A stretch of 57,482 nt of DNA from Lachnospiraceae bacterium. Lineage in GTDB: Bacteria > Bacillota > Clostridia > Lachnospirales > Lachnospiraceae. The notes under the pieces were generated by a model. That model had not been told where the DNA came from. It worked only from the letters and a program-made list of their open reading frames with translations, and did not search any database. The DNA lies in the NCBI GenBank assembly GCA_017622535.1, contig JAGAQX010000151.1, forward strand, positions 1 to 57,482, read 5' to 3'. Below, in pieces: positions 23,274 to 41,724 of this stretch (within the stretch, counting starts at the first letter, position 1; the number at the start of each line of letters is the position of its first letter). A program made the position numbers and the translations under genes.

Positions 23274-23376
23274 ATCATTAATCCTTTCTGCATGTTGTTT
23301 TATATGTAATGTGTCTCACCTAACAGTGCTCTTCTTCACATCAACTACATTAGTATAACAATTATCAAATCGACCG

Positions 23377-25389: not shown

Positions 25390-25406
25390 ATATCCCTCAA
25401 ACTCTT

Positions 25407-26483
25407 TTAATCTTCATACACTACAACTCGATTTCTTCCTTCTGTTTTAGCTCGATACAGCGCTTTATCTGCACATTCAATTGCACTATGATAATTGCCA
25501 CCTTTGTATGCAGCTACACCGATTGAAGCAGTAATTGGGCATATCGAATTATCACTTGCCTCAATATTTACACGAAGCTTCTCGGCAATCGTTGCGCCAA
25601 TTTCAATATCACAGCCAGAAAGAATAATCAAAAATTCCTCACCGCCCCAGCGAATGATGTAATCCGTTGAACGTACCGATTGGCTTATCACTTTAACTGT
25701 ATGTTTCAACACAACATCTCCAGACTCATGACCGTATTGATCATTGACATTTTTGAAGAAATCTAAATCTACAATCAAGAAAGCTACTGGTACCTCTGAA
25801 GCTATATTCAGTTCTTCCGTAATAGGGTCACTAATCTTTTTTAACTTGTTACGATTAAACACACCTGTCAGTTGATCATGTACCACTAAAGTTTCCAACT
25901 GCTCTGTCACCAAATAGTGATCAAGATAAACCTTTTCCATTGTATAATGCATGACACAAACAGCCACAATACACGGAACATTAAACATAAGCATCATTGC
26001 TACATTGTCATATCTTATAAATATATTAGCAATTAATATATCAACTGCTAAACCACAATGTGCAATCAAGGCATATTTGTAAGGGGCGCAAAATCCAACA
26101 CATACAAATATCAAGTTCATGATAATCATGCCTTCACCTGCATATTCCCTGTCAGGCAATATATAGGTTGCCCAGTCTGTGCACCATATAATGATATGTA
26201 CCATCAGGTAGGAAGCAATTACCATTAATTTGTAGCCCTTATTCTGTTTATATAAATACATAAACGCCAACAAAGGCAAAATTACAATCAAACGTGATAA
26301 CAATGTCTCATGTGCAAATCTACCGAATATTCCACAATCGGTAAAGAAAAAAGTCAAATACGCAACGGTTGCGATAATCAAAACTCCACGGTTAAATGAT
26401 TTGTAATAATCATACTTTGATTGATAAAATTCTACTTGTTGCTCAGTCGATAACTGTTTTGCCTTTGTAATCATTTGTTCCAT
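25407..26483 (-). CDS. Membrane diguanylate cyclase (GGEEF, with RxxD I-site)
   Basis: An N-terminal domain of about 6 TM helices is followed by a GGDEF domain (RWGGEEFLIIL). RSTD lies five residues upstream of GGEEF. A 17-nt gap separates it from the downstream EAL gene. Confidence 0.88.
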   Translation of the reverse strand: MEQMITKAKQLSTEQQVEFYQSKYDYYKSFNRGVLIIATVAYLTFFFTDCGIFGRFAHETLLSRLIVILPLLAFMYLYKQNKGYKLMVIASYLMVHIIIWCTDWATYILPDREYAGEGMIIMNLIFVCVGFCAPYKYALIAHCGLAVDILIANIFIRYDNVAMMLMFNVPCIVAVCVMHYTMEKVYLDHYLVTEQLETLVVHDQLTGVFNRNKLKKISDPITEELNIASEVPVAFLIVDLDFFKNVNDQYGHESGDVVLKHTVKVISQSVRSTDYIIRWGGEEFLIILSGCDIEIGATIAEKLRVNIEASDNSICPITASIGVAAYKGGNYHSAIECADKALYRAKTEGRNRVVVYED

Positions 26484-26566
26484 CCTGCATCCCCCAATAA
26501 AATATTTGCATATTATTATACCAGTTTTCTCTATTGTGTATCAAGTGAATTCAGGAAACTCCTCCA

Positions 26567-27607
26567 TTATTCTTCTTCCTGCCAATACTCTCGGAGATTA
26601 ATTCCTGTTGTGTCCTTAATAAACGGTGTTTCAAAATGATTATAAAAATATGCATCCATCGGTGTTTCCACACCATCTTTTAGGTAGTAATATCCAACTT
26701 TGCCATCTTCGTACTCGTACCCAACAAAATCATAGGAAATTTCATAAGTAGAACCATCGACTCCCACAAAGGAATAATGGTTTTTATCGCCTTCCACTGA
26801 ATAACCTTCTCTAACCAAAACTTCATATAGCGTAGAAAAGCTCACACCATATGAAAATCGACTGGCTACTAGGTCATCATAATACTCATAAGGACCATCC
26901 TCTGATTTCGCCACCCCCAAACGGTATTTACTATTGGCAACCACTTCTTCGATTTCTTCTTCTGTAAACTCTTTCAAACAGTTTTCCAGCCCAAAATCCA
27001 ATGCGGTCAAAAGGAAGTTCTCTTCTGCTTCCTCATACATCTCTTCGACAAACTCGATAGCCGTATCTCGATAATCCCCTGAATCCATTTCATAACCTTC
27101 TACCGCATCGCGGAACGGAATATCCATCATGAAATGGACACTGACCTTCACTTTATGATCCAAATATTCATCCAAAAATGCATTGGTTTCATTAAACAGT
27201 TCCTGTAATTCTCTTCTACTACTATATTTTCCCTTAATGATAGCACGACATAATCCGTATTGCGTTTTGGTTTCTAGAGACAAACTCTCAGAATCATACT
27301 GTTCAAACGCCTGCGCTAATCGGACATCCTCATAATCACCAATCAAATTATTTCCAGGAAACAACGAATCCGCCTGAAAATCATCCAAAACACGAAACTT
27401 CATGCTATGTTTTTTGTCCGTCACTGTCCATATGTAATCTGTACTGTCATTTTCATCCTTGATTGCTTCTGGTTCCTGTTCTACCGAAACAGACTTCAAG
27501 CCATATTCAGTTTTCACATATTCCTTGATATCGTTCTTATCGTAATCTTTTCTACAACCACACAAACATATGATGCAGAGTATTACGATTAACATTATTC
27601 TTTTCAT
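26567..27607 (-). CDS. Lipoprotein of unknown function
   Basis: The likely start is ATG 27607 (MKRIMLIVILCIICLCGC lipobox), preceded by AGGAGG. The track ORF extends to 27628. Confidence 0.7.
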   Translation of the reverse strand: MKRIMLIVILCIICLCGCRKDYDKNDIKEYVKTEYGLKSVSVEQEPEAIKDENDSTDYIWTVTDKKHSMKFRVLDDFQADSLFPGNNLIGDYEDVRLAQAFEQYDSESLSLETKTQYGLCRAIIKGKYSSRRELQELFNETNAFLDEYLDHKVKVSVHFMMDIPFRDAVEGYEMDSGDYRDTAIEFVEEMYEEAEENFLLTALDFGLENCLKEFTEEEIEEVVANSKYRLGVAKSEDGPYEYYDDLVASRFSYGVSFSTLYEVLVREGYSVEGDKNHYSFVGVDGSTYEISYDFVGYEYEDGKVGYYYLKDGVETPMDAYFYNHFETPFIKDTTGINLREYWQEEE

Positions 27608-27945
27608 TTGATACCTCCTAATTACCATCCATACTTTTCTAAATCTAGTTATATATTAGTCATTGAACAATATAATTGCCCCTGGTTTCATTCGCCAATT
27701 TTCTATGTATAATGTGCTATCAAAATTTAGCACTATTTTGTAATTATATCAGATACTAAGAAAATTGTATCTAATATTTGATAAAATATGCTCTTAAGTA
27801 TTACCTTTTGAATCAAAATTGATTGCCAAAAATTGCTTACAATGTTATGGTGTATCTATTGTTATTAAATAACAACCATTCAGAGATGCCTTCAATAGTG
27901 CTTACTCTGAATAATGAACAGTACAAATGAAGAGAGGCTAGAATA

Positions 27946-29475
27946 ATGTACAAAATTATGACTTCTGACGAAGCAATCGATATTATAAAAGATGGCGACG
28001 TCATCTGTTTAAATTCATTTTTAGGAATCGAAAATCCTACTGAATTACACGAAGCGATTTATCGAAAATATAAGGCAACCGGTTCTCCAAAACACTTGAC
28101 CATGGTTTCTAGTGCTGGATTCGGTGTTTGGGACGAAAATAAAAATGCAGAACAGTACATAAAGGACGGTGCCGTAGACAAGATTATCTGCGGACATTTT
28201 GGAGCTATGTTTAGCACAAAGAGACTTGTACTAGAGGACAAGTTTGAAGCATACAATCTTCCATTGGGTTGTATTTCCCATGCGATTCGTGCACAGGCCG
28301 GTGGTATTCCAGGTGCCTTATCCAAAGTTGGCCTTGACATTTTTGTTGACCCATTGGTGGACGGACCAGGAATCAACAGTATTTCTAAAGATGATTCTCT
28401 TGTAACTCATGTGGAGGTTGACGGGGAGGAATTCTTATACTACAAACTACCAAAATTCAATGTGGCGCTCATTAAAGGTACCACTGCTGACCGCAAGGGT
28501 AACATTTCCTTTGACGACATGTATATGTCTGGTGACGCACTATCCATCTGCCAAGCAACTAAGGCAAATGGTGGTAAGGTCATTGTTCAGGTGGATCGTA
28601 TTGAAAGTACACCTTCTAGACCTCGTAATACTATTATTCCTGGATGTCTTGTAGATGCAATTGTTAAAGTTGAGCCAGAACCACGTCACGCCGCATATGA
28701 GTCATTAACCGGTAGTTTTGAAATTCCGTACTCTCAATGGCAGGATTGGAGCGACATGTTAGAGGCAAGAACATCCACCAAAAGTGTTGTCAATGTGGCA
28801 GGAAACATCATTGGTAAGCGTGCTGCTATGGAACTTCGAGAAGATGACATCGTAAATATCGGTGTGGGAATTCCCGAAACCGTTACGAAATATGCTCGTG
28901 AAACTGGTATTTTAGATAAAGTAACATTAACGGTAGAATCCGGCGGTGTAGGTGGTTTCCCTGCTTCTGGCAAGGTATTCGGTGCTGTTATCGGTGCAAA
29001 TTCCATGTACGACATGGCAAACCAATTTGACCTATACAACAACGGCGGTTTGGATATCTGTTTTATGGGTGGTATTGAAGTAGACGTGCATGGCAATGTC
29101 AATGCACACCGTGGTCCCGGAGCCTTTGCCGGGGTGGGGGGATTTGCCAACATTACTGCCAAAACCAAAACTGTGGTATTCTGTTTAACATTTAACGCAA
29201 AGGGATTAAATGTGGACGAAAAAGACGGAAAAATCACTATTGTCAACGAAGGTTCCATCCCAAAATTTGTAGATGAGGTAACAAGCATCAGCTTTTCTGC
29301 GAAACGTGCACGGGCTAACAAACAAAGAATTTTGTATGTGACGGAGCGTTGTGTATTCGAATTAGGCGAACATGGACTTAGACTCATTGAAGTATATCCA
29401 GGAGTGGATATGGAAAATGATATATTAAAGCAGTTGCCATTTAAGGTGGAAGTAGATTCACTGCTTCAATATTAA
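27946..29475 (+). CDS. Acyl-CoA:acetate/propionate CoA-transferase (Pct/YdiF family)
   Basis: The protein resembles Clostridium propionicum Pct end to end as I recall it (IKDGD, VGLDIFVDP, ALIKGTTADRKGNISF, catalytic LTVESGGVGG, ILYVTERCVF). Confidence 0.85.
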   Translation: MYKIMTSDEAIDIIKDGDVICLNSFLGIENPTELHEAIYRKYKATGSPKHLTMVSSAGFGVWDENKNAEQYIKDGAVDKIICGHFGAMFSTKRLVLEDKFEAYNLPLGCISHAIRAQAGGIPGALSKVGLDIFVDPLVDGPGINSISKDDSLVTHVEVDGEEFLYYKLPKFNVALIKGTTADRKGNISFDDMYMSGDALSICQATKANGGKVIVQVDRIESTPSRPRNTIIPGCLVDAIVKVEPEPRHAAYESLTGSFEIPYSQWQDWSDMLEARTSTKSVVNVAGNIIGKRAAMELREDDIVNIGVGIPETVTKYARETGILDKVTLTVESGGVGGFPASGKVFGAVIGANSMYDMANQFDLYNNGGLDICFMGGIEVDVHGNVNAHRGPGAFAGVGGFANITAKTKTVVFCLTFNAKGLNVDEKDGKITIVNEGSIPKFVDEVTSISFSAKRARANKQRILYVTERCVFELGEHGLRLIEVYPGVDMENDILKQLPFKVEVDSLLQY

Positions 29476-29554
29476 AGGTTCAAAAAAACGATTCACGATT
29501 CAGAAACGACTTGAAAATATATAAAATATCTATACTAAGGAGGACTCTATCTTT

Positions 29555-30361
29555 ATGAATAACGAAAAGAAAAGACATATTCGTTTATTACTTATCAGCT
29601 TATTATTTGCAGCAATATTTATAGGTGCCGCAGCCTATCTTGTAATCACACATCGTGGAACAGAGGCTGCTACAGACACGATTGTAAGTATCACTAAAAT
29701 TCTAGCGCTAATCGGTGTATTCTTTTTGGTATTGGCATTTGGACACGTCGTACCCGCCTTTGTCACCTTAAAAAAACGAGAAGACGGTAAGCCGGTAGCA
29801 GAAGGCAGCGGTATCTTCAGCGAAAAAAAGATGCAAGATGCATTAGGAAACTATATTCCAGACGGAGAGACATTACTTGCCGGTATTCATGCTGTTGGAA
29901 AAGAATCTTCTGTGACATGCGTATTCGAAAACTGTGTGCTTACGGAGGACGCATTACTTGCCAACGAGAATGGCAACACCGTGTCAGTAAGCAAATCCAA
30001 ATACTCCACATATGACCTGTACATCGGCATTACCCAGAACTGTTTCATTGTAGCCGATTGTGAAACTTACCGCTATTACTATGAATTTGACAAAGAGCCT
30101 AATACTGATACAACAGATATTCAGACTGTAACCGAAGATATTCAGTTAAGAGATATTGGCAAATGCTTCTCATTAACAGATATCCAAAGCTTCGAGATGA
30201 AGAATGGGTTTGCTGGTTCCATCAACTGTATGATCAAGTTGAAAAACGGAGGCTACTTCAAGCTTCTACTTCCAAAAATGGGGGGATTAGGCGGTGGTAT
30301 GCCACGCCATGAAGAATATAGAGATGCGATTGTGAAACGCTTGAACGAATGTAATGCATAA
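29555..30361 (+). CDS. Hypothetical two-TM membrane protein
   Basis: A GGAGG RBS precedes the start. Two N-terminal TM helices are followed by a soluble C-terminal domain. No family was recognised. Confidence 0.65.
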   Translation: MNNEKKRHIRLLLISLLFAAIFIGAAAYLVITHRGTEAATDTIVSITKILALIGVFFLVLAFGHVVPAFVTLKKREDGKPVAEGSGIFSEKKMQDALGNYIPDGETLLAGIHAVGKESSVTCVFENCVLTEDALLANENGNTVSVSKSKYSTYDLYIGITQNCFIVADCETYRYYYEFDKEPNTDTTDIQTVTEDIQLRDIGKCFSLTDIQSFEMKNGFAGSINCMIKLKNGGYFKLLLPKMGGLGGGMPRHEEYRDAIVKRLNECNA

Positions 30362-30393
30362 AAGCTCTCAAATAACCTAGATACATAATGATA

Positions 30394-30433
30394 AGCCCCA
30401 CATTTTACTCATCACAAAGTAAAATGTGGGGCT
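30394..30433. terminator. Bidirectional terminator hairpin between convergent genes
   Basis: A perfect 15-bp stem forms between agccccacattttac and gtaaaatgtggggct, with a 10-nt loop. Confidence 0.6.
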
Positions 30434-30495
30434 CTATTATTATCATTTATCCAATTGTTTGAACCAAATACATTGGTACATCAAATATACTTACC

Positions 30496-32319
30496 TTACT
30501 TCCACCATTCCTTTTCCTCTTCTTCGGAATCCAAAACTACAGTGACATTCGCCCCTAAATCTGACCCTTGGGAAATCGCATTTTGTCCGCACCACACAAT
30601 TTCGAACTGTGACAACTGCTGTAGTGGACGCAAATCTGTCACATAGTTGTTGGTAATATCTAGTTTCTTCAAATTTGGCAGGCTCTCAACAAAGGAAATA
30701 TTGATAAGCTTGTTCCCTTGCAGATACAACTCCTCAAGATTGCCAAATTTCTTTACCACATCGATGTTATCAACCAATTCCACATCATCATAATCTACAT
30801 AAGTAAATGCACCATCATACTGCACCACAATATTTTCCCAAAGGCGTAATCGATTCATATGTAATACCTTCAAGTTTGTGTGCTCAGGAATCGCATCAAA
30901 ATTCATCCCAAAGCTACAATCATTAATATTAATCTCTTCCAAGCTTGCAATCGAAAAAATAGCTTCCACATTTCCATATACAGTTATACCACTCATATCT
31001 AACACCTTAAGCTTGGACAAACTCGTTAACATATTCAAATTATCCAAATCACCATACACACTGCCAATTTGTAAATACTCTAAATTCTGCAACGAAGCAA
31101 AGACATCAAAGGTACTGCAATCCGCCCCTCTTAAATACAATTTTTTTAATTCAGTCAAAGATTGCATAAAAGAAATATCGGATACACCTGCGATAGACAA
31201 TGTATGTAACTTTGTCCAGTTATTTGCATCAGGCATTTGCGCTTTACTTCCCACTTCCAATGTCAATTCTTCTAATCCACTCAAAGAGCTTAACGCACTA
31301 TAATCAGATATTTCTCCATTATCCTGCAGGATAACCGTCTTTAATGATGTTTTCCCCTCTAATGCCGAAATATCAATTACGATGGTATTCTCCAAAGAAA
31401 GCTCTTGTAAATTAGACATCTTTTCTACAAAGGAAATATCCTTAAGCTGTTCTGTCTCGAGATGTAAATTTTCCAGTTGCTTCAAGGAATGCAAAACACC
31501 AAAATCTGTAATTGCATCACCATTTACTATCTCTAATGTTTTCAAATTGGTAAGAGCGCTAATTGCATTCAAATCTACCAAATCATAGTCATCGATATGC
31601 AGATACTCCAATTTTGTAAATGCATCCACCCCATCTAATGTTTCTGCATCAAAGCATCCGTATATCTTTAGCTTATCCGGATTTGGCAGGCTAGACGCCA
31701 AATCTTTTGGTGTATTCCGGCACCACACTTCTTCTAGCGAGTTTAATTGTTCCAATGCCACTTGAGGAATGGTCTCTGTGGCAAAATGAAGCTTTGTAAG
31801 ATTCGGGAAATTTTTCAAATCTCCCATATCACAATACAAAGAGTCTTCCAGCTGTATCTGCTTGTTTTCACCATCGTTTCTGCTGTATTCTACGACATAA
31901 CAACCATTCTCATAATAAGCATATATCGAAGTTAACTCCTCTAATTCTTCCTCTGCAACATCATCTACTGAAGTACCATAGATTTCCTGTACAAGGGTTT
32001 TAAAGAATTCAGAGCGAAACTTCTCTTCTTGTACTTCTGTCACAACTGATGAAGAACGGTTATTATTGGTTGAATAACTTTCACGAATTGACACCACTAA
32101 GAACACCAATAACAGAATTACGATGATGGCAAACACACTAGCCAACAGACAACCCTCTTGTGATGAGGAAGATGATGATTCATGTATATGAATCTCTTTA
32201 GGTTCATCTCTATCAATCAAATATATCGCATCACAATGTGGGCATCGGGCTCTTTCTCTGTCAATCTGCTCTAATGCACCACCACAATTTTCACATTCCA
32301 TTTCAATTAGTTTAATCAT
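30496..32319 (-). CDS. Zinc-ribbon / single-TM / leucine-rich-repeat (internalin-like LRR) protein
   Basis: The N-terminus is CENCGG..17..CPHCDAIY, followed by a TM helix (CLLASVFAIIVILLLVFLVV). About 15 repeats of roughly 22 aa follow (LxxLxxLxLxxNxIxDISxL). Confidence 0.75.
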   Translation of the reverse strand: MIKLIEMECENCGGALEQIDRERARCPHCDAIYLIDRDEPKEIHIHESSSSSSQEGCLLASVFAIIVILLLVFLVVSIRESYSTNNNRSSSVVTEVQEEKFRSEFFKTLVQEIYGTSVDDVAEEELEELTSIYAYYENGCYVVEYSRNDGENKQIQLEDSLYCDMGDLKNFPNLTKLHFATETIPQVALEQLNSLEEVWCRNTPKDLASSLPNPDKLKIYGCFDAETLDGVDAFTKLEYLHIDDYDLVDLNAISALTNLKTLEIVNGDAITDFGVLHSLKQLENLHLETEQLKDISFVEKMSNLQELSLENTIVIDISALEGKTSLKTVILQDNGEISDYSALSSLSGLEELTLEVGSKAQMPDANNWTKLHTLSIAGVSDISFMQSLTELKKLYLRGADCSTFDVFASLQNLEYLQIGSVYGDLDNLNMLTSLSKLKVLDMSGITVYGNVEAIFSIASLEEININDCSFGMNFDAIPEHTNLKVLHMNRLRLWENIVVQYDGAFTYVDYDDVELVDNIDVVKKFGNLEELYLQGNKLINISFVESLPNLKKLDITNNYVTDLRPLQQLSQFEIVWCGQNAISQGSDLGANVTVVLDSEEEEKEWWK

Positions 32320-32627
32320 ATATTTTTCCTCTACTTATATAATAAGTTTCTTTTTCCTTATATTATTGTCAATTTATCATTTTGAATCTATATTGTCAAT
32401 GAATGCATATATCATTGTCACCACCTAAAACAAGCGTTAAAAACATATACCGAAATGCTCAAAAACCTTATAATTCCTTGTCTTCTAGGTTGACACAATA
32501 CTAAAGAAAGTATTATTATGTTCATAGTACAGTTATTTCATTAAAAACGAATAATACGATGATTCTTTTATTAAAAACAAATTATCAACTGTTCACAAAA
32601 ACACTTTTTTAATGAGGAGGAAAGAGC

Positions 32628-34202
32628 ATGATTACATTACAAAAGAACAAACGATTAGCTGTAGGCTTATTACTAGCAATTCTATTGTTAGTTTCTGTAT
32701 GTGCAACACATCCTGTTCACGCAGCTTCTACAACAGATATCGCAGTTGGCGGCCAGCAATACTACTTAACCAGCGTAAAATATCCTGGACGAGCAGTTAA
32801 CATGTATGTCGATTCTACTGCCGCTATTACAAATAAGACTCCCGTCAATTTGTACGCATTGGACAAAAGCACAACACAGCGCTTTACTTTTGTTAAAAAC
32901 ACCAAGGGAAACTACCTAATGATTCCTTATGGCAGTAAATATACTGTTAATGTTTCTGCATTGCAAGCTGGTACAGCAGTATTTGCTTGGCAAAATAAAG
33001 CCGTTAACAATGAATACTTCATTATCGAAAAAACTAGCGACGGATATTACACCATGCGAATGGAAAATGCTACCGGACTATACTTAACAGCAGACTCTAA
33101 TTCTAAGTTGACGCTACGAGCTAAGGCTGCTGACAACTCACAGAAATTTGCATTCCATCCTTATCCTGAAACTACACCGGAAACGGATGCTGCTACAGAC
33201 ACTGCTACCGATGCTGCAAATGACGCAGCAAACGTTACATCCTTCTTCACAGAGGGAAATCAGTATTACTTCACAAGTGTTAAATATAGTGGAAGAGCCA
33301 TTAATATGTCTGTAAACAAAAATTCCGCTATCAAAAACAACACAAAGGTAAATTTATATGCCCTTGATAAAAGTGAAACTCAACGTTTCACCTTCAAAAA
33401 GAATAGTGCTGGTCAATATTTAATGGTTCCATCAGGAACATCTTATACAGTAAATGTAAACAAACTCAGCGCTGGTTGTAAGGTAATCGCCTATAAAAAC
33501 CAAGCTAAAAATAATGAGTATTTGATTGTTGAAAGAACAGCTGAAGGATATTATATGTTCCGATTAGCTAACAAGCCAAGCCTGTATTTAACAGCTACTT
33601 CAAAGAACACTCTTACATTCAAGAAAAAAACCTCAGGTACATCCCAACAATTTAAGGGTGTAGATTATTCTATCGAAAGCACAATAGTTAATATCACAAA
33701 GAACCTAGAAACATCATCTCTTACACTAGGTGTTAAGCATCTTATGCAGACTGATAAACGTTGGAAAAAAATCTCTTATGATCCTAGAGATAAAAACGCT
33801 ACTATTGGTACTTATGGCTGTCTTGTAACTAGTATGACAATGGTATACAACTATAGACACAATACTACTTATACACCAGTTACTTACGCAAAAAAGAGAA
33901 TGAAATTCGATGGCAACGGATATGCTAATGGTGGGGATTACAAAAAGCTAAAAAAAGTCACACCTTTCAGTTGTAAAACTATAAAGAAATATATTGATTC
34001 GGGTTATCCTCTCATTATATTCGGTAGAACCAAAAAGAATGCTGGTGCTACACATTATGCCGTAGTTTATGGCTACACAAATGGTGCCACAAGCGCCAAG
34101 TACTGTAAGCTTTACGATCCAGCTTCTAAAAAGAGAACAACCGTTTCACATTTCTTAAAGACATACAAACACAACGGTAAGCTTTATATTCTAAAAGATT
34201 AA
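32628..34202 (+). CDS. Secreted protein with two ricin-type beta-trefoil-like repeats and a C-terminal papain/C39-like cysteine peptidase domain
   Basis: It has a signal peptide and an internal duplication (aa ~35-180 versus ~205-345, with repeated YYLTSVKY..GRA.NM..., TQRFTF and NNEY.I.E motifs). The C-terminus carries GTYGCLVTSMTMV (Cys) and ATHYAVVYGY (His). Confidence 0.55.
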   Translation: MITLQKNKRLAVGLLLAILLLVSVCATHPVHAASTTDIAVGGQQYYLTSVKYPGRAVNMYVDSTAAITNKTPVNLYALDKSTTQRFTFVKNTKGNYLMIPYGSKYTVNVSALQAGTAVFAWQNKAVNNEYFIIEKTSDGYYTMRMENATGLYLTADSNSKLTLRAKAADNSQKFAFHPYPETTPETDAATDTATDAANDAANVTSFFTEGNQYYFTSVKYSGRAINMSVNKNSAIKNNTKVNLYALDKSETQRFTFKKNSAGQYLMVPSGTSYTVNVNKLSAGCKVIAYKNQAKNNEYLIVERTAEGYYMFRLANKPSLYLTATSKNTLTFKKKTSGTSQQFKGVDYSIESTIVNITKNLETSSLTLGVKHLMQTDKRWKKISYDPRDKNATIGTYGCLVTSMTMVYNYRHNTTYTPVTYAKKRMKFDGNGYANGGDYKKLKKVTPFSCKTIKKYIDSGYPLIIFGRTKKNAGATHYAVVYGYTNGATSAKYCKLYDPASKKRTTVSHFLKTYKHNGKLYILKD

Positions 34203-34224
34203 TACATAATAGAATATTAACTGT

Positions 34225-34266
34225 AAATAGGCAGATGTTCAAAAATTGAACATCTGCCTATTTTTT
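34225..34266 (+). terminator. Rho-independent terminator after the ricin/peptidase gene
   Basis: A perfect 17-bp stem forms between aaataggcagatgttca and tgaacatctgcctattt, followed by TTTTTT. Confidence 0.85.
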
Positions 34267-34305
34267 CATCAACTTCAATTTACCCCCACTCTTGACAAAG
34301 AGCCC

Positions 34306-34475
34306 AAAAAACTCCTCGTACATCATTACGACATACGAGGAGTTTGTTTAACTAATTGATATTCAATTCAACCGATTACGGTGTATTACTTATCATTGAT
34401 TGCAGCCTGTGTGGTCTAAAGTCGTTGGATATAAAGTTATGTAAACTTGTTTGCTATTCAAAACACTGTTACATA
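34306..34475 (-). repeat. Copy 1 (minimal form) of the ppdK-end composite element
   Basis: It comprises a terminator hairpin (34309-34345), a conserved arm aactaattgatattcaattcaaccgatta, a 7-nt filler, the 24-nt core 34386-34409, and a shared upstream arm running to about 34475. It lacks the roughly 174-nt hairpin module. Confidence 0.8.
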
Positions 34476-34555
34476 ACAAAGAATTTAAGCTATCGTAGGA
34501 TAATTATTATTCCCTACCCTGAACAACACTTTTCCCGTTTTAAGGCGGATAATAA

Positions 34556-34885
34556 TTATATAATCTGCTCTCTGCTTTGCCGATTATGTAAAAATCTACG
34601 AATCTCCATTACTTTTCCTAACTGCTCATCATTTATAACAACATAATAAACCACATAGTTTTTTACATAAATCCGATAATACGGATAACGTCTTTCTTTA
34701 ACAGAATAATATGGTTCAAATGATTCTGCATTGGGTTGACGTTCCAATATAGCACTTTCCACTCTATCTAATAAATTATTAGCTGCTTGTGGATTATTCA
34801 GCGTCTCCGCTATATATGTTGCTACATTTTCCAAATCTTCATAAAATTTAGGCAAATATCTAATCACATATGCCATATCAGCCAT
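34556..34885 (-). CDS. Type II toxin, RelE/ParE family
   Basis: The protein is 109 aa and matches the ParE-like pattern (YVIRYLPKFYEDLENVATYI, YRIYVKNYVVYYVV). It overlaps the upstream antitoxin stop. Confidence 0.75.
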   Translation of the reverse strand: MADMAYVIRYLPKFYEDLENVATYIAETLNNPQAANNLLDRVESAILERQPNAESFEPYYSVKERRYPYYRIYVKNYVVYYVVINDEQLGKVMEIRRFLHNRQSREQII

Positions 34886-35135
34886 TAATCCGCCTCCTCA
34901 AATTAGAGAATACTTCTTCATGTGTATATCTTGTAGAATCTTCTTCTGCTAATCGATCAGCTTCATCTAATGCCACTTCAACACCATCGGTCAGTTTTGA
35001 ATATGCCTCTAAACTCAACACCACCATTTTTCCATAACCATTTTTAGTAAGATAAACTGGCTGCCCTTCATCCACAAGCTTTTCAATATCCGCGAATTTA
35101 TTTCTCAAATCAGAGACTGGTTTTATTTGTATCAT
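34878..35135 (-). CDS. Type II antitoxin, Phd/YefM family
   Basis: The sequence MIQIKPVSDLRNKFADIEKLVDEGQPVYLTKNGYGKMVVLSLEAY is typical of the family. The start is set at ATG 35135, preceded by GGAG; the track ORF extends to 35153. Confidence 0.75.
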   Translation of the reverse strand: MIQIKPVSDLRNKFADIEKLVDEGQPVYLTKNGYGKMVVLSLEAYSKLTDGVEVALDEADRLAEEDSTRYTHEEVFSNLRRRING

Positions 35136-35232
35136 AGTAATCACTCCTATCATAATTTTATCAAAATTTTATCATTACAATTATTATATCCAATCACAAG
35201 ATGTATTACAAGTATAATATGTCTCCATTACA

Positions 35233-35267
35233 TAAAAAATAACAGGAACATTACTATTCCTGTTATT
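35233..35267 (-). terminator. Rho-independent terminator after the small ORF / DUF4230 operon
   Basis: A 10-bp stem forms between aataacagga and tcctgttatt, followed on the minus strand by TTTTT. Confidence 0.7.
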
Positions 35268-35274
35268 CTATATC

Positions 35275-35454
35275 CTAAAACAAACCTTTGGCTATTACTT
35301 CTTTTTGTCTCTGTTGCATGAAGAAGTTACTAATTAATTCGACAAATTCTTGTTCTTCCTCTGATTCAGCATTTAACGCTACTTCTACTGTATCTTCGAT
35401 ATCCATTTCTTTGCACACTTTATAGAATTCTTTAAATGATTCTGTAAGAGTCAT
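35275..35454 (-). CDS. Small acidic protein (59 aa), absent from the ORF track (below its length cutoff)
   Basis: The ATG at 35454 is preceded by GGAGGT 7 nt upstream. The product reads MTLTESFKEFYKVCKEMDIEDTVEVALNAESEEEQEFVELISNFFMQQRQKEVIAKGLF, with TAG at 35277-35275. A terminator follows immediately. Confidence 0.55.
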   Translation of the reverse strand: MTLTESFKEFYKVCKEMDIEDTVEVALNAESEEEQEFVELISNFFMQQRQKEVIAKGLF

Positions 35455-35488
35455 GGTGTACCTCCATTCACAAAATTAATCTTAACAT

Positions 35489-36115
35489 TTATTTTGCTTC
35501 ATCGTTTATTTTTGTTGTTTCTTCGCCATCTTCATATACCCATGTAATCTTATACTCAACACCTGAAACTTCTCCTAATCGGTCAATATAATTTTTAATC
35601 AAATCCTTTGCTCGACTCTGCGCACTCAATAGTAATGCAGAATTATTTTTTACACTCTCCTCCATTTCTTTTTGTGCATTTTCAATTGCCGCCGTTTGAT
35701 CCTCTGCAGTAATTTTATTACTATTCAACCCATCTGCCGATGATATATAAGATTCTTCATTCAAAGTTGATTCTTCCACACTAATATTCATTAATTCAGC
35801 ATCAGGAATCGAAATAATAACATTAGTCCCATCCATCTCCATGGTCACTTTTGACATATCAACTCCAACTTTGGCTACACCGGTGTACTCTATCCAAAAT
35901 TTTCTTTCTTTTTCTCCCCAATGTGCAATCCCCTCACCTGCTGTTTTTACCGATTTTGCCACATTGTGATAATAACATTCCAATGTCGCCAAATTGCATA
36001 TTGACCTAATTTGTGTTATCTCTGGTTCATTTATAACCTTTTTTTCTGCCGAACAAGAACACATAATTAATACTGTCAATAACATAATACCTATTATAAA
36101 TATTTTTTTAATCAT
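35489..36115 (-). CDS. DUF4230-like lipoprotein
   Basis: It has a signal/lipobox (LLTVLIMCSCS) and the pattern I..IRSICNLATLECYYHNV...GVAKVGVDMSKV...ISIPDAEL, which I associate with DUF4230. Confidence 0.55.
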   Translation of the reverse strand: MIKKIFIIGIMLLTVLIMCSCSAEKKVINEPEITQIRSICNLATLECYYHNVAKSVKTAGEGIAHWGEKERKFWIEYTGVAKVGVDMSKVTMEMDGTNVIISIPDAELMNISVEESTLNEESYISSADGLNSNKITAEDQTAAIENAQKEMEESVKNNSALLLSAQSRAKDLIKNYIDRLGEVSGVEYKITWVYEDGEETTKINDEAK

Positions 36116-36127
36116 TTCCTCATCCCC

Positions 36128-36739
36128 TTACTTTACTTCAACTTCGTATTCTTCATCTACTTGTTGAATCCATGGTGTAAACAAAGCTTTTACTGATTCT
36201 ATCGCGTTTGTTTTAGCCATTTTAATCAAATCAGTTTCATTCTTGACGCGATTTTCTAAATCTTGTTTGCAAGCTTTATATGCCTCTTGCGAAACCGTTT
36301 CCGTTTCATATTTGTCTTTCATAAAAATGTAATCCAATGTTCCCATATTTACATCTGTCACATGTATCTCTATTTCCGGAAGTGTTATTACAATCTTCTT
36401 TTGCTCTTCATCTGGAACAATTTTAATTTTTTTAAAATCAATTCCTGCTGTCACAACTCCTTCATATGCAACATAGTATTTTATGGTTGTCCCATCTTCG
36501 TCATAAACTTTTGTAGTAGCATTATATGTATAATCTACTGTTGACAATTCGTTAATCTCAACTATCTTTTCCAACGAAGATTTTGAAATTGTACTTACTT
36601 GTCCTTCTTTGTTATTAAATACTACCATTTTCATATAAACACCAATTGCGATAAGCAGTATTATTGCAATAAATACCGAAACTGCTATAATTTTCTTTTT
36701 GATTTTTGTTAAATTAATTTTTTTATCTTCTCTTTCCAT
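36128..36739 (-). CDS. DUF4230-like membrane-anchored protein
   Basis: The likely start is ATG 36739 (MEREDKK...), preceded by AAAGGAG; the track ORF extends to 36892. An N-terminal TM is followed by INELSTVDYTYNAT...GVVTAGIDFKKIKI...ITLPEIEI. Confidence 0.55.
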   Translation of the reverse strand: MEREDKKINLTKIKKKIIAVSVFIAIILLIAIGVYMKMVVFNNKEGQVSTISKSSLEKIVEINELSTVDYTYNATTKVYDEDGTTIKYYVAYEGVVTAGIDFKKIKIVPDEEQKKIVITLPEIEIHVTDVNMGTLDYIFMKDKYETETVSQEAYKACKQDLENRVKNETDLIKMAKTNAIESVKALFTPWIQQVDEEYEVEVK

Positions 36740-36945
36740 ATATATTTTCTTCTCCTTTGTATATCGTATAGTAGGAACACTTTTCCTCATAATATAATTC
36801 GTGTTTTTCACAAAAACAAATCTAAGAACAACGGATTTGTCATATAACCGCCAACATTTGTAACCAATATATATCCTGATTAAACATACCATATTATTCT
36901 ATCATAAATAGAATTCATTGTCATTTTTTCAGTATGATTTTTCAC

Positions 36946-36986
36946 ACACAAAAAGGAAGCTAATTGCCCTGCAAACAATTAGCTTC
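36946..36986 (-). terminator. Rho-independent terminator after the acidic lipoprotein gene
   Basis: A perfect 11-bp stem forms between gaagctaattg and caattagcttc, followed on the minus strand by CTTTTTGTG. Confidence 0.75.
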
Positions 36987-37092
36987 TCTACTCAAAAAAA
37001 GTCGAACCCTACCATATCAAAAATCCTTATATTCAAGTCATCTTTATTATTGTAGTAATTCTACATCTTGTCCTATATCGCACAAATCCATT

Positions 37093-38241
37093 TTATAAAG
37101 ATGCATCTAGAAGTTTTTTGTTTATTCTTGTCATAACTTCAAGATAATAAGCAGCCTCCTTATCGTTCATTTCATCATCTTCCATTTCTTCTAATTTCTT
37201 CATGGCTTCCGCATACTTTTCCATATAATCCAAGTAGTCCGCCATCATACTCAGTGTATCTGAGGATTCTGCATACTTCTCCATAAATGCGATATACTCG
37301 TCAAAGAATTCTTCATAACTATCCATCGCCGCCTTAAATTCTGGTCTCATTCCATCTATTAACTCATCACTTGTGCTTTCTGAGGACTCCGTACTTTCTT
37401 CTTTAGTTTCTTCCGAACTCTCAGTTTCGTCATCCTGAATCTCTTCCGTTACTTCTTTTTCATCTTCCTTATTTTCGCCCTGAATTTCTTTTATTTTCCG
37501 TTCCATAACTTCCCTTAATTTCTGTGCTACATCTTCTGCATCTTTGTTATCTGCGTAGAATTGACTAGATGCCTCTGACCAAATCACATAACACAAAGCA
37601 CTGGCATCGGACCACTCTTTATACACACTAGAAGTTGTATCCGACCACATTTCATATGCACCACCAGAAGCATCAGACCACTCTTTATACTCTAATTCTT
37701 CATACGCACCTGAAATGATACCATCGTATATGTCATCATACATATCATCCAATATACCATCATATACATCATCATAATAATGATATAAAACACCATCGTA
37801 TATCTCGTCATAATAATCATCAATGGCATCTTCCAACGCCTCCTTATCGTCTTTATGTTGTTCAAATGCTTCTTCAAAATAATTAACAGAAGATTCCGCA
37901 AGGCTCGAAAACACATCCTGTGATTCAACAACCATCTTTTCACAAAATGTATTCATTTCTTCCTTATGTTCAACATATCCATCATAAGAATTATCCATTG
38001 AGTCCACAATCGATGTATATTCTTCTTGAAATCCTATAATCATATCATAAATTGGCGTTTGCAGTTGCCCCAACTCTCCCATCTCCAATTTTTCTTCTGC
38101 TGTTTCTTCTTGTTTCGTTTTCTCCACCAAAGTCTCTGTTACATTCGATTCATTCTTGCCGACATCTGCCATTCTATTACATGCCACCATTGAAATTGAC
38201 ATACAAAATGTAATTATAATTATTGATAATTTTTTCATCAT
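37093..38241 (-). CDS. Highly acidic lipoprotein with Y-D-D-[IV]-Y-D-G and W-S-D-[AT]-S repeats
   Basis: The lipobox is ISMVAC. The central region reads YDEIYDGVLYHYYDDVYDGILDDMYDDIYDG, then YKEWSDASGGAYEMWSDTTSSVYKEWSDAS. No family was recognised. Confidence 0.65.
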   Translation of the reverse strand: MMKKLSIIIITFCMSISMVACNRMADVGKNESNVTETLVEKTKQEETAEEKLEMGELGQLQTPIYDMIIGFQEEYTSIVDSMDNSYDGYVEHKEEMNTFCEKMVVESQDVFSSLAESSVNYFEEAFEQHKDDKEALEDAIDDYYDEIYDGVLYHYYDDVYDGILDDMYDDIYDGIISGAYEELEYKEWSDASGGAYEMWSDTTSSVYKEWSDASALCYVIWSEASSQFYADNKDAEDVAQKLREVMERKIKEIQGENKEDEKEVTEEIQDDETESSEETKEESTESSESTSDELIDGMRPEFKAAMDSYEEFFDEYIAFMEKYAESSDTLSMMADYLDYMEKYAEAMKKLEEMEDDEMNDKEAAYYLEVMTRINKKLLDASL

Positions 38242-38331
38242 AAATCATCCATCCTCCTTGAATAAGTGTGTTCTCATATCTAATCTTCCGTTCTAAAACC
38301 ATCGATAAGCGCACAGTTGCTAGTTTCTTCA

Positions 38332-38661
38332 TCAAAGTTCTGCTATCATTTTTTCCACTTTAAGAATCAAATCACTGGTCTTTACATTTTTTGACTTTAA
38401 TTCATCAAGTTTTACAATTAAAGCATCCTTTTTGATATCGTTTGTAGCATCAATAATATCTTTAATTTGCCTCACACGATATCCGATATCTTGATAAAAC
38501 CGTATCTGTATCATTCGGTTCACCATATCTTCATTATAAAGCAGATATCCACGTTTCATTTTTGCTGTAGCATGCACTAACCCCTCCTTTTCATAACCTT
38601 GAATTGCTCTTCTGGAAATCCCATATTCTTCATATATTTCCCTTAACGTCCTGTTTCTCAT
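38332..38661 (-). CDS. MerR-family transcriptional regulator (109 aa)
   Basis: It has an N-terminal HTH (TLREIYEEYGISRRAIQGYEKEGLV) and a coiled-coil C-terminus. Confidence 0.75.
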   Translation of the reverse strand: MRNRTLREIYEEYGISRRAIQGYEKEGLVHATAKMKRGYLLYNEDMVNRMIQIRFYQDIGYRVRQIKDIIDATNDIKKDALIVKLDELKSKNVKTSDLILKVEKMIAEL

Positions 38662-38707
38662 TCGCTTACCTCATTTAAACAATGATTAGTTATAGCAATA
38701 TTTTGAA

Positions 38708-38729
38708 ACTGCACGTAACGTGCAGTCAA
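38708..38729 (-). promoter_or_regulatory. Perfect 8-3-8 palindrome overlapping a TTGACT -35 box upstream of merR (candidate operator)
   Basis: The palindrome is actgcacg-taa-cgtgcagt (38708-38726). On the minus strand TTGACT lies at 38729-24 and runs into the palindrome. Confidence 0.4.
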
Positions 38730-38880
38730 CACTGCTCCACTAACAACTGTCGCTATCAAAACAGGACTTGTAAATTTCGCGAATTACATTTATTCTGTTA
38801 TATTCTGGTTAGCAGAAAACCGAATCCTTATATGTACTAGTACTGAATGCAGTATTCCTGTCACCTTGTCATTTATAACA

Positions 38881-39213
38881 AAAACGCCTCGCACATCATT
38901 ACGACATACGAGGAGTTTGTTAAACTAATTGATATTCAATTCAACCGATTATCCACATCGCAAGCACAGCTTGCTCAGTGATGGACAGTCGATATATGAA
39001 AGCGCTGACGCGCATTCTCAACATAAGAGAAGGGCACGTCTCGGAAAGTAAACTTTCCGAAACGCACCCTCTTCTTATGTTACGAAAGTACTTCGTACTT
39101 TCGCATATCTCATTGTTTTCACATCTTACTTATCATTGATTGCAGCCTGTGGGATCTAAAGTCGTTGGATATAAAGTTATGTAAACTTATTTAATATCTA
39201 AAGAACTATTACA
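38881..39213 (-). repeat. Copy 2 (full form) of the ppdK-end composite element
   Basis: It comprises a terminator hairpin (38884-38920), a conserved arm, a 174-nt hairpin module (38952-39125), the 24-nt core (39126-39149), and a shared upstream arm running to about 39213. It lies directly downstream of the MCP gene. Confidence 0.85.
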
Positions 39214-41700
39214 AAAATTAATTCTACGTTCAGTTACAACCATCAAAACCATTTTTATACATTAAATCGCTCAATTAATTCCTTCAAATGGTTAAGACTT
39301 GTCTCGCTCTCACGTAAATGCTCATAACCTTCTAACGTTTTCTGAACTGCATCTTCAGATTTCTCTGCTATCATATTCACTCCACCTGCAGACTCTGTAA
39401 TTGTACGATTCACACCATCCATTGCATCCACGATTTCTACAATCTTACGATTTAATTCAGAAATTTCAGAATATATATGCTGCATTGATTCTGCATAGCT
39501 TTCCGCATCCTTCTCATAACGTTCACCTACTTGACCAAACGTACTATAATCTTCAACCACTGTTTCTTCCAAGAAACTCATAATGACCTGAATACAATCT
39601 GTCATATTAACAACAGCTTCATTGACCTCTTTTACAATTTCACTAATGCCATCTACAGTTTGGAATGTTTGATTAGCAAGTGCGCCAATTTCAGTAGCAA
39701 CTACAGCAAAACCACGACCTGCTTCCCCTGCTCTTGCAGCTTCAATGTTAGCATTCAGTGCCAGTAGATTTGTCTGAGCAGAAATATCACGAATATCATC
39801 AGTCAACTCATTGATCTTCGCAACTACTTTTGATTTTTCAATTGCTTCTTCCGTACGCGTTCTCATATCTGCATAAATAGCCATTGCTTTCTCATTAGAA
39901 GCACTTGTATTATCTCGAAGTTCTCTTGCTCTCGTCATAATTTCTCTCGACTCTTGCTGTTCACGTTCAGAAAGCTCTCGAATTTCCTCTGCATTTGTTT
40001 GGATTGCATCAATATTGCTTACAATCATAGTCGCGCTAGCGGTAGTTTCTTCCATGCCAGAGGCTAGTCCTTGGGTAGTTATAGAATTATCCTCAGAAAT
40101 AGAATTGTTTTCCCTCATTATGTCATCTAAACGCTCCATATTTCCAATCAAATCATCTTTAATACCTTCCATGTTACCTACCAACTCACGCAAAACAGAA
40201 CGCATTTCATTTACCGCCTTTGCCATAACGCCGGTCTCATCACGTTTATTCATCAATTCATCAATTCCTGCAGCTCGTTGAAAATCTAGCTGTGCAGTCT
40301 GTTTAATAATTTCTGTAATTCGTTTAATCGGTTTTGCAATCGTACTTCCTATCAAAACTCCAAGCACAATAGCAATCATCAATCCCAAGGCAAGAAACAT
40401 CAATATTTGACCAGAAAGGGCATTTGCATCAGCCGTAATTTCCTCTAATGGCGCTGTCAATACAAGCTTCATACCATTCTTCAGTTCCACATAAGCTAAG
40501 TATTTTTCCTCACCATTATAGTTATACTGCAGTGTTTTACCTTGATTAGCAGCATCCAATATAAAATCCTTAACAACTGTTAAGTCTCCATCATTATACT
40601 CTGCTAAATCAGTACCAGACTCTATATCTTTATGATACAATACATTACCTGTCGAACTAACCAAAAAGGAATATCCAGTATCAAAGGCAATCGCATCATC
40701 TGCTAAAGACGTCAACTGGCCAAAATCAATATCCATTCCTAGAATTCCTACTGATGTACCATTTTCATAAAGTGGAACCACATAAGAAATCATATAAACA
40801 TTAATATTAGCATTCAAATAAGGGTCCATCCAAAGTGGAGCTTTGTTTGCAACTGGTAGATAATACCAACCCACATGTGCTAAATCAGACGGATCATACA
40901 TACTAAAATCCGTTGGTGTCACACTGTCAAATGCAGACTCCGTATCATTACGAGTCAAAAATATACCAGAAGTTGGTTCTGTAAATTCTGGATTATAACG
41001 GATATATGCTGTAATTGCTCCGTCTGTATGCTCTGCAAAAGTATAAAAATCCTCCAAAAGTCCATTGGTATACTCGCTCACATATTCATTATTATTCTTA
41101 AATGTAGAAAATTCCAACTTTTCCATTGCAATATCGCTGATCGTGTCTACCGATTGCTCAATTCTAGAAATCAAAGCATTAATTTCTTCACCTGTATTTT
41201 CACAGGTTAGCACTAGTTCATTTTCAGCTGCAGCATTCGATAATTCTCTCGTATCAGAAATACTAAGCAAACTGATAATACATGCTGTAATTAAAGAGCA
41301 TATCACAATTGCAACTGTAATTTTCATTCGTATAGATTTCATAGTAAACCCTCCTCACTTTGACATCTTAATAATTATACCACACAATCACACATTAATA
41401 ATATCTTTTTTTTATAAAATTGCATCTTTCTGATAGCCTTTTCAAAAAATCAACCAAAAACTCCTTGCACTTCATTACGAAGCACAAGGAGCTTATTAAA
41501 CTAATTGATATTCAATTCAACCGATTATCCACATCGCAAGCACAGCTTGCTCAGTGATGGACAGTCGATATATGAATGTACTGACGTACTTTCGCCACAC
41601 ATAAAGAAAGCGTATCCAGGAATGCAAGCACTCCTGAATACGCTTCTTTTATGTGTTACGAATGCCTTCCGGCATTCGCATATCTCATTGTTTTCACATC
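39150..41700 (-). mobile_element. Putative inserted cassette B, bounded by core copies 2 and 3 (single MCP gene)
   Basis: The architecture matches cassette A: shared arm, then cargo, then structured module. It is flanked by the 24-nt direct repeats, and no recombinase is encoded. Confidence 0.35.
39255..41342 (-). CDS. Methyl-accepting chemotaxis protein with extracytoplasmic Cache-type sensor and HAMP
   Basis: Two TM helices flank a sensor domain of about 280 aa. A HAMP domain and an MA domain follow, with the tip [30 protein letters not shown]. Confidence 0.88.
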
Positions 41701-41724
41701 TTACTTATCATTGATTGCAGCCTG
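41455..41724 (-). repeat. Copy 3 (full form) of the composite element, forming the 3' end and 3' UTR of ppdK
   Basis: It comprises a terminator hairpin (41461-41491), a conserved arm, a 173-nt hairpin module (41528-41700), and the core 41701-41724. The core here encodes QAAINDK plus TAA of ppdK. Confidence 0.85.

Follow-up and report, generated by a model that had tools for sequence, protein, structure and literature searches.

Comparison of related loci supports the 3′ end of ppdK as a docking site for recombinase-less gene cassettes in Lachnospiraceae

How do gene cassettes without a recombinase come to stand one behind another at the 3′ end of a conserved gene, each bounded by a copy of the last codons of that gene? 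The question is raised by ppdK, which encodes pyruvate, phosphate dikinase, in a 57,482-nt stretch (hereafter the window) of a Lachnospiraceae bacterium (contig JAGAQX010000151.1). In a focal segment of 7.4 kb (positions 34,306-41,724) three direct repeats of the ppdK tail bracket two cassettes, and an earlier note on this DNA had read the arrangement as repeated insertion at the 3′ end of a conserved gene. Empty and filled sites in relatives, cargo polymorphism, a boundary common to several lineages and a published integration site support that reading: the end of ppdK would be a docking site at which recombinase-less cassettes have been inserted one behind another and exchanged between species.

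The window was compared with contigs of relatives (loci numbered with L). These include ~50 same-genus contigs from rumen and gut assemblies, which were retrieved by exact-protein look-ups with the methyl-accepting chemotaxis protein (MCP), DUF4230, MerR, a 59-aa open reading frame (ORF) and close ppdK variants; look-ups with the 902-aa and 877-aa ppdK products and with a leucine-rich repeat (LRR) protein gave no match. Tail duplications were surveyed in 79 ppdK loci of other species. The modules are named in the direction of transcription: C is the 24-nt core, S the 7-nt TACACCG, U a ~170-nt hairpin block, T an invariant 29-mer (TAATCGGTTGAATTGAATATCAATTAGTT) followed by an intrinsic terminator, and A the arm.

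The repeat behind ppdK and its empty and filled sites

The core, TTACTTATCATTGATTGCAGCCTG, occurs three times in the window, each copy exact and on the + strand (Table 1). No further copy was found in the window with ≤3 mismatches allowed, and 100 shuffles gave 0 matches (0 expected). Core 3 is the end of ppdK itself (…AAQAAINDK*), namely its last seven codons (QAAINDK) and TAA, and it begins, at its left edge, with the Gln codon of AAQAA. Neither core 1 nor core 2 is coding. The in-frame TAG that the earlier note had placed three codons upstream of core 2 is there, and core 1 is preceded by one at the same distance. The ppdK start is most likely the one at position 44334 (877 aa) rather than the start of the 902-aa ORF, judging by many near-identical 877-aa proteins.

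The repeated unit extends well beyond the 24-nt core by which it had been described: it is a composite of the arm, the core, either 7 nt or the 170-nt hairpin block, and the terminator. Over ~270 nt, copies 3 (41455-41724) and 2 (38879-39149) are 83% identical; copy 1 is limited to the core, 7 nt and the final 72 nt, which make up the terminator block (34307-34378, 86-96% identical). As the earlier note had stated, a homologous, ppdK-type terminator follows all three cores, and a common non-ppdK arm stands before cores 1 and 2 (~67 nt each, 88% identical). A ~45-nt block of arm A is conserved in six arm variants or cassette contexts. The arm occurs only before cores, and is not the generic dispersed repeat that it might have been. 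Cores 1-3 are mutually 100% identical; an older arm-core copy in L126 has decayed. Read outwards from the gene, the array is ppdK-C-U3-T3, the MCP gene (cassette B), A-C-U2-T2, merR to parE (cassette A), A-C-S-T1 and a solo ISL3 end.

Empty sites, and different cargo between cores, were what the earlier note had proposed to look for in relatives, and both exist. In the congener L127 (ppdK 97% identical, flanks ~80-89%) MatE and the shared backbone come after ppdK-C-S-T, and the core does not recur. In L100, a more distant species, an identical 24-nt core is followed by orthologous 7 nt and terminator, and then by a convergent gene. Since both empty sites show this order, C-S-T is the native 3′ flank of ppdK. 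Core-S-T stands directly after ppdK in L127, L128, L126, L082 and L081, with the orthologous version in L100, and a T3-like allele directly follows the core and 7 nt in L082, L089, L081 and L126; T3 is the allele closest to the native ppdK terminator of the relatives. The sequence after core 1, previously called a minimal terminator, is indeed a terminator and, by comparison with L127 and L100, is the native one of ppdK.

A single insertion is seen in the congener L128, where ppdK-C-S-T is followed by genes for SMI1_KNR4, 43-aa, 59-aa and zeta-like toxin proteins, then by A-C-S-T and an LRR remnant that belongs to the native flank. L128 thus looks like a clean attL/attR pair and L127 like an empty attB, sites that would presumably be recombinase substrates. 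Other loci differ in cargo. The L081 array reads ppdK-C-S-T, MCP, A-C-U, a cassette with HTH (helix-turn-helix), 94-aa and 696-aa genes, A-C-U, a cassette with 229-aa, 65-aa and RhuM genes (PDC-S05 in PADLOC), h4-T (h4 being a hairpin of U) and a second merR-type cassette, and so holds two extra cassettes; its first cassette after MCP follows U without T. L092 carries cassette A and then the same merR2 cassette as L081, with an MNT/HepT pair, and L126 carries one 268-aa cassette between 83-nt T repeats, with a decayed A-C before the second T. At every filled site the ppdK tail is intact, irrespective of the module that follows, with the reading frame and the stop restored.

The T3-MCP-A segment is 99.87% identical over 2378 nt between the window and L081 (MCP gene, 2088/2088), and the core genes of L081 are 87.6% (GlyRS), 79.0% (NlpC/P60) and 97.3% (ppdK) identical to those of the window. 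Cassettes A and B are 98-100% identical between the window and L083 (A, 98%; MCP gene, 2088/2088), as against 83.8% for CoA-transferase. Such near-identity of cassettes amid core genes diverged to 79-88% indicates horizontal transfer, and at least two cassettes have crossed species boundaries recently. The ppdK DNA is itself 96-97% identical among congeners (L081, L126, L127, L128), with neighbouring core genes at 79-89%; strong constraint on a highly expressed gene, or cross-species recombination at the locus, could be the cause.

GTDB representatives have ppdK genes ≤90% identical to that of the window, and none shares its 3′ untranslated region; a metagenome scan with the core matched two contigs of one related species only. 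A viral-contig collection scanned with the core, T, both U ends and the arm gave 0 matches, and the whole module had no match among plasmid and phage sequences (blastn).

A common boundary and the source of the enzyme

In four Bacillota lineages (the genus of the window, L011, L016 and L017; 79 loci tested) the duplication has its left edge at the Gln codon of AAQAA, within ~4 nt, despite differing lengths of the C-terminal tail (offsets of -24 in the window, -20 in L017, -27 in L016 and -31/-27 in L011). Three tail copies bracket two one-gene cassettes in L011, one 303-aa cassette sits at the duplicated ppdK tail in L016, and a 150-nt repeat (95%) surrounds a 7-kb, eight-gene cluster of nucleotide-metabolism type in L017. 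The same ppdK codons form the attB of PvCTn-like elements of Bacteroidota: a 20-bp site at the ppdK 3′ end, GYSGCNCARGCKGCHRTHGA, encodes AAQAA(I/V)(D/E), and integration creates imperfect direct repeats and regenerates the stop codon, leaving ppdK intact (PMC11005914). The window ppdK agrees with the published degenerate attB motif at 18/20 positions (manual count). Besides that paper, no report of ppdK as an integration site was found in the literature.

We favour, with somewhat better than even confidence, site-specific integration of tyrosine-recombinase type at the ppdK 3′ end by cassettes that bring their own tail and terminator, with the enzyme supplied in trans and the modules shuffled later. 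The AAQAA codons at the ppdK 3′ end would serve as attB, and the left edge of core 3 is proposed as its crossover side, with the exchange at or near that edge. The incoming cassette would bear an attP-like module composed of arm A, the stretch of ppdK that begins with the Gln codon and ends with the stop, and a ppdK-type terminator. After integration the cassette copy would complete and terminate ppdK, and the native tail and terminator would be shifted behind arm A; core 1 would be that displaced native tail. Repeated insertion would stack cassette B (MCP) ahead of cassette A (merR to parE). Elements that integrate into tRNA genes follow the same logic, with the crossover at the left edge of the identity block and everything downstream replaced by the element. 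Homologous recombination and gene conversion would then swap 7-nt and 170-nt blocks and terminator alleles, and move cassettes between strains and species.

The enzyme would have to act in trans because no cassette encodes a recombinase; its source would be an integrase-bearing element with the same attB, or a host recombinase. In agreement with the earlier note, no recombinase or transposase was found by Pfam in the 7.4 kb or in the scanned ORFs of the window (direct runs, plus precomputed matches for identical or orthologous genes in related loci), and an ad hoc tyrosine-recombinase hidden Markov model found none among all window ORFs of at least 120 aa. No recombinase gene is present in ~12 cassettes from 5 lineages. 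Integrase, relaxase, replication and phage fragments were likewise not found in the cassettes (Pfam, PHROGs, NCBIfam, PADLOC), a result still compatible with an old origin, and neither were conjugation (type IV secretion) or mobilisation genes. The earlier note had left a choice between mobilisation in trans and an unfamiliar mechanism. We infer the former, along with the recombinase type and the crossover position; the mechanism need not be unfamiliar, since cis-mobilizable elements (CIMEs) and a ppdK attB are known.

Several observations weigh against site-specific integration in trans: (i) a recombinase acting on the ppdK site was found in no Bacillota locus examined, and no excised circle or attP junction was seen; (ii) the two L011 cassettes lack a shared arm; (iii) the RhuM cassette of L081 is flanked by a 35-nt h4 repeat and the L126 cassette by the 83-nt T repeat, not by the core, and the L092 junction is a core/h4 hybrid in which CAGGCT of the core is joined to h4; (iv) an MCP ortholog (86% identical) lies elsewhere in the same variable region of L128, so that cassette B may have been recruited from a resident gene; and (v) the repeated modules (24-270 nt) could in principle move all the variation by homologous recombination, so that site-specific mobility at the present day is putative. 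Hairpin h4 resembles the core (CTGTCCATCACTGAGCAAG vs CTG-CAATCAATGA-TAAG); it could be a secondary site, or the h4 junctions could be illegitimate events.

The last of these points has evidence of its own. The block after ppdK is U3 in the window, S in L081, L082 and L089, and a third allele in L083, and the block after MCP is U2 in the window and U3 in L083. The hairpin alleles are mosaic and reassort, and L086 has a hybrid terminator; homologous recombination or gene conversion is evidently at work among the modules. Might it have done everything, the modules acting as portable homology for loop-out circles and single crossover, or for double crossover after DNA uptake? The mosaic alleles and hybrid terminator, the shuffling of U and S relative to the cassettes, duplication extents that vary (24, 35, 83, 103 and 270 nt) and the identity tract of cassette B in L081, which ends inside modules, are all as this would have it. 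Homologous recombination alone seems insufficient, however, because the boundary is common to unrelated lineages and a non-ppdK arm is shared among unrelated cassettes. It leaves unexplained the same Gln-codon arm-core junction in four unrelated lineages, the coincidence of this junction with the attB of a proven integrase, and the conservation of the arm, and we regard it as improbable.

Site-specific insertion may also lie wholly in the past. The cassettes would then be decayed remnants (strict CIMEs) of an integrase-bearing integrative and conjugative element (ICE), integrative mobilizable element (IME) or prophage at the ppdK attB, and would now be moved only passively. Decay is a known route to tandem arrays at gene 3′ ends (PMC5704250), integrase-bearing elements use this attB in Bacteroidota, and the eroded arm-core copy of L126 shows that sites erode. 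We nevertheless consider this rather unlikely. The ~12 cassettes (5 lineages) measure only 0.9-7 kb, with 1-8 genes, and nearly all are co-oriented with ppdK, one HTH gene of L081 and L130 lying on the opposite strand; none contains an integrase, relaxase, replication or phage gene fragment; and 100% identical cores, conserved arms and cassettes 100% identical between species point to recent movement. On account of their small size, prevailing co-orientation, lack of mobility remnants, exact cores, conserved arms and recent movement, they give the impression of dedicated cassettes rather than debris. None of the ~50 same-genus contigs shows an ICE at the ppdK site.

If the enzyme acts in trans, the host Xer system or an Xer-like paralogue is a candidate, with arm A as a dif-like site and the cassettes resembling integrative mobile elements exploiting Xer (IMEX) or pdif modules. 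Arm A of cassette B contains a dif-like 28-mer, AGTCGTTGGAT-ATAAAG-TTATGTAAACT, with a perfect XerD-type and a degenerate XerC-type arm. Its last 11 nt match the XerD arm of B. subtilis dif (ACTTCCTAGAATATATATTATGTAAACT; PMC3025954) and of staphylococcal dif at 11/11 positions. None of the six arm variants examined, the one of the congener L128 among them, departs from this half-site, and the exact 11-mer occurs nowhere else in the window. The 6-nt spacer is AT-rich and varies at two positions, and the other-side arm, ATCCAACGA, differs by 2 nt in L128. In six small-genome Bacillota metagenome-assembled genomes (L012, L014, L017, L030, L052 and L077) a XerC/XerD-family gene (~300 aa) is the immediate upstream neighbour of ppdK or is separated from it by one gene, and L017 also has the 7-kb recombinase-less cassette; the proximity may be a coincidence. 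Other features fit poorly with Xer. The XerC-side arm matches at only 4-5/11 positions and lacks the inner ATAA. The site lies 33 nt from the duplicated core, hence away from the duplication boundary, and the motif, which was recognised post hoc, is absent from the arms of L011, L016 and L017. Nor is the locus at a replication terminus: a true dif was rejected, GC skew being negative throughout the window with no switch. We judge recombination by Xer to be quite improbable.

A wider proposal would make the ppdK tail the landing pad of a dedicated, integron-like cassette-capture system in Bacillota, in which promoter-bearing cassettes carry an arm A plus core module, the recombinase is encoded elsewhere and is possibly a host Xer-type enzyme, and the system arose or spread in several lineages of Clostridia and Bacilli (the genus of the window, L011, L016 and L017). 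We offer this as a tentative and rather unlikely possibility.

The hairpin block, the cargo and the surroundings

The U block between core 3 and T3 comprises hairpins h1-h4; in the U2 allele three hairpins differ from those of U3 through compensatory changes. The predicted fold reaches -115.7 kcal/mol on the sense strand (z = -10.5), compared with -85.3 on the antisense strand, and 18/80 predicted U pairs are retained through double changes among 5 U variants. Because the sense-strand fold is the stronger and the pairs are compensated, U is evidently under selection as a single strand that folds in the sense orientation of ppdK, RNA being the simplest form. A search of the hairpin block against Rfam 15 (gathering and E-value thresholds) returned no family: only tRNAs reached the gathering score, and the sub-threshold matches were plant miRNA hairpins and similar. 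A compact relative of U lies upstream of the ppdK promoter in L128 (9690-9800), with equivalents in L129 and L130, and is absent from the window. This element shares the h2 loop (ATGCTTGCAT), its h4 shows a compensatory A/T swap, and a repeated TTAACAATGAGCCAA borders it. Since U and S are not tied to particular cassettes and a related block stands upstream of ppdK in congeners, U is a small structured element in its own right, and it is shuffled separately from the cassettes. An invertible switch, suggested by a seeming swap of h1 and h3 between alleles, was rejected, as direct alignments were always better than those with the reverse complement. A diversity-generating retroelement with variable and template repeats was also rejected; there is no reverse transcriptase, and the repeats are exact rather than adenine-mutated.

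Structure of this kind could mean that no mobile DNA is involved, and that a regulatory or stabilising RNA with its terminator, in the ppdK 3′ untranslated region, was duplicated locally and reused by neighbouring genes. The strongly structured block with its sense-strand G-U pairs and covariation, the lack of a terminator within the cassettes (A and B each end in T) and the related hairpin element upstream of ppdK in congeners would all suit such a history. It is largely refuted, and in our judgement hardly credible, given the presence/absence polymorphism, the empty sites, the cassettes 100% identical in diverged genomes, and a repeat that includes the ppdK coding tail and has a boundary common across lineages.

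T holds a perfect 15-bp palindrome, AATTGAATATCAATT, at 34350-34364, 38923-38937 and 41499-41513. In L100 (~519-533), a different species, it reads AATTAAATATTAATT, a paired G>A / C>T change having preserved the symmetry. Such a pattern suggests a binding site for a protein rather than a stable hairpin in RNA. Where the array ends on its outer side, the solo ISL3 terminal inverted repeat, GGCTCTTTGTCAAGAGTGGGGGTAAA, abuts T1. In L083 (~3559-4946), L084, L085, L088 and L090 the big U3 hairpin is interrupted by a complete ISL3 transposase copy that has this same end, and ISL3 seems to target these hairpin and terminator structures.

Pfam bears out the cargo annotation of the earlier note, with MCP in cassette B and MerR-like, DUF6591, two DUF4230 and Phd/ParE proteins in cassette A, all co-oriented with ppdK (Table 1). 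The cassettes appear to carry their own promoters, to judge by consensus-like -10 elements read by eye. The DNA of the acidic 59-aa ORF is 86-94% identical across otherwise unrelated cassettes and species (L081, 21382-21561; L126, 22494-22634; L128, 13643-13822). It may be an antitoxin module that remains at the right end of cassettes, because in L128 it adjoins the zeta-toxin-like gene. Two cargo proteins were considered as excisionases and rejected: the MerR-like protein resembles an ordinary MerR regulator, and the 59-aa product is acidic and paired with the zeta-like toxin in L128. The N-terminal half of the DUF6591 gene contains imperfect 12-nt tandem repeats (ACCATCGTATAT-like units) at 37720-37821.

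In some strains an IME is inserted in the 3′ end of the second DUF4230 gene (35606-35627), cutting its product from 208 to 183 aa. The element carries a tyrosine integrase, NikA/MobC, a relaxase and TnpV; its left end is found in L101 and L103 and its right end in L111, L112 and L116, and CTD11/MC7/DUF2326, a Schlafen-like ATPase, a NUDIX-HTH protein and an acetyltransferase lie at its far end. The tyrosine integrase and relaxase element of L082, L101 and L103 was rejected as the mobiliser of the cassettes, its site being the 3′ end of the DUF4230 gene and not the core.

The distance from ppdK to purE is ~18.4 kb in the window, and the two genes are directly adjacent in a relative with a 96%-identical protein. 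The interval between the array and purE (23274-34278) is likewise variable. In the window it encodes a RicinB/C39-like 524-aa protein, an LRR protein, a 268-aa protein, CoA-transferase and GGDEF/EAL; among relatives, DUF4304 takes the place of the 524-aa gene in L083, L127 has MatE, and L118 has nothing at all. None of these differences is bounded by core repeats. Upstream of ppdK the window has a gene for an NlpC/P60 protein, and the remainder of the window holds housekeeping genes such as those for RadA, ClpC, GlyRS, RecO and Era and pur genes.

Table 1. Positions of ppdK, the repeated modules and the cassette genes in the window
Feature	Position	Strand	Basis or remark
ppdK, pyruvate, phosphate dikinase, 877 aa	41701-44334	-	Pfam PPDK_N, PEP-utilizers, PEP-utilizers_C; translation; near-identical 877-aa proteins
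Core 3, codons QAAINDK + TAA	41701-41724	-	translation
U3, structured block (~173 nt)	41528-41700	-	RNA fold, covariation
T3, 29-mer (invariant) + intrinsic terminator hairpin	41455-41527	-	closest to native ppdK terminator of relatives
Cassette B cargo: MCP, 695 aa	39255-41342	-	Pfam MCPsignal, dCache_1, HAMP
Arm A, cassette B	39150-39216	-	88% identical to 34410-34476
dif-like 28-mer in arm A, cassette B	39160-39187	+	XerD-type arm perfect, XerC-type degenerate
Core 2, non-coding	39126-39149	-	exact match
U2, second structured-block allele	38952-39125	-	compensatory changes relative to U3
T2, terminator block	38879-38951	-	terminator-like site 38913-38887
Cassette A cargo, whole	34556-38661	-	Pfam
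MerR-like	38332-38661	-	Pfam
DUF6591 protein	37093-38241	-	Pfam
DUF4230 protein, first	36128-36892	-	Pfam
DUF4230 protein, second	35489-36115	-	Pfam
Acidic 59-aa ORF	35275-35454	-	
Phd	34878-35153	-	Pfam
ParE	34556-34885	-	Pfam
Arm A, cassette A	34410-34476	-	88% identical to 39150-39216
dif-like 28-mer in arm A, cassette A	34420-34447	+	
Core 1, non-coding	34386-34409	-	exact match
S + T1, native ppdK 3′ flank (short) + terminator	34307-34385	-	core-S-T order in relatives
Solo ISL3 terminal inverted repeat	34279-34304	-	identical to end of full ISL3 copy

Significance and comparison with known systems

Integration at the ppdK 3′ end has so far been described solely for large, self-transmissible elements of Bacteroidota. 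In at least four Bacillota lineages insertions are bounded at those codons, and the inserts that accumulate there are small, recombinase-less cassettes with toxin-antitoxin, candidate defence, sensory and envelope genes. If a recombinase does act in trans, the locus would be a cassette platform in a phylum, the Firmicutes, from which to our knowledge integrons are not known, and a new route by which defence and accessory genes spread in gut and rumen Lachnospiraceae. Even on a conservative reading the attB at this locus is well defined, the attP-like arm is conserved, and empty and filled alleles occur naturally, so that the question is open to direct testing.

PvCTn-like elements share with the ppdK cassettes the target gene, the codons, the direct repeats and the restored stop (PMC11005914). 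They are, however, large elements that transfer themselves and encode both a tyrosine integrase and a type IV secretion system, and they belong to another phylum (PMC11005914). The ppdK cassettes, in contrast, have 1-8 genes and no integrase or transfer genes, form stacked arrays, and bring a full replacement tail and terminator.

CIMEs are flanked by attL and attR and lack integration and transfer genes; by definition they arise through decay of ICEs or IMEs, and an ICE that integrates beside them moves them in cis (PMC5704250). The ppdK cassettes resemble them in their att-like flanks, whose role as recombinase substrates is presumed, in the lack of mobility genes, and in their tandem arrangement at the 3′ end of a glycolytic gene with a duplicated end, but no decay remnants and no partner ICE were seen at ppdK arrays. 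In the ICESt1/ICESt3 family of Streptococcus thermophilus, CIMEs and tandem accretion are reportedly found at the 3′ end of fda.

With integron arrays and clusters of attC sites lacking integron-integrases (CALINs) the ppdK arrays have in common small co-oriented cassettes without recombinase genes, structured separating sites with conserved ends and variable, covarying hairpins, and cargo of toxin-antitoxin or defence type (Phd/ParE, MNT/HepT, a zeta-like toxin and RhuM/PDC-S05). Unlike integrons, they have no intI beside the array, their boundaries hold the duplicated tail of a host gene, and the cassettes seemingly have their own promoters. An integron attC (R″ RYYYAAC, R′ GTTRRRY) was rejected by eye, the h2 bases GTAACA...ATGTTGAGA or ATGTGTGGC being a misfit to R′.

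IMEX and pdif modules also lack a recombinase of their own and use a host enzyme, as the cassettes would; arm A contains a perfect XerD-type half-site, and the arms are direct repeats. The ppdK array differs in lying away from dif and the terminus, in the degenerate other half-site, and in that the duplicated part is the ppdK tail and not the dif-like site. The ssrA islands of Dehalococcoides encode their own integrases, a feature in which the ppdK cassettes differ from them. These successive islands are attributed to site-specific mobilisation; as with the ppdK cassettes, a directly repeated 3′ end from a conserved gene delimits each of them (PMC3146451).

Set beside these systems, a ppdK attB in Bacteroidota and att-flanked elements without a recombinase (CIMEs) were already known; the phylum, the cassette-like recombinase-less inserts, the conserved arm and the recurrence in several lineages are new.

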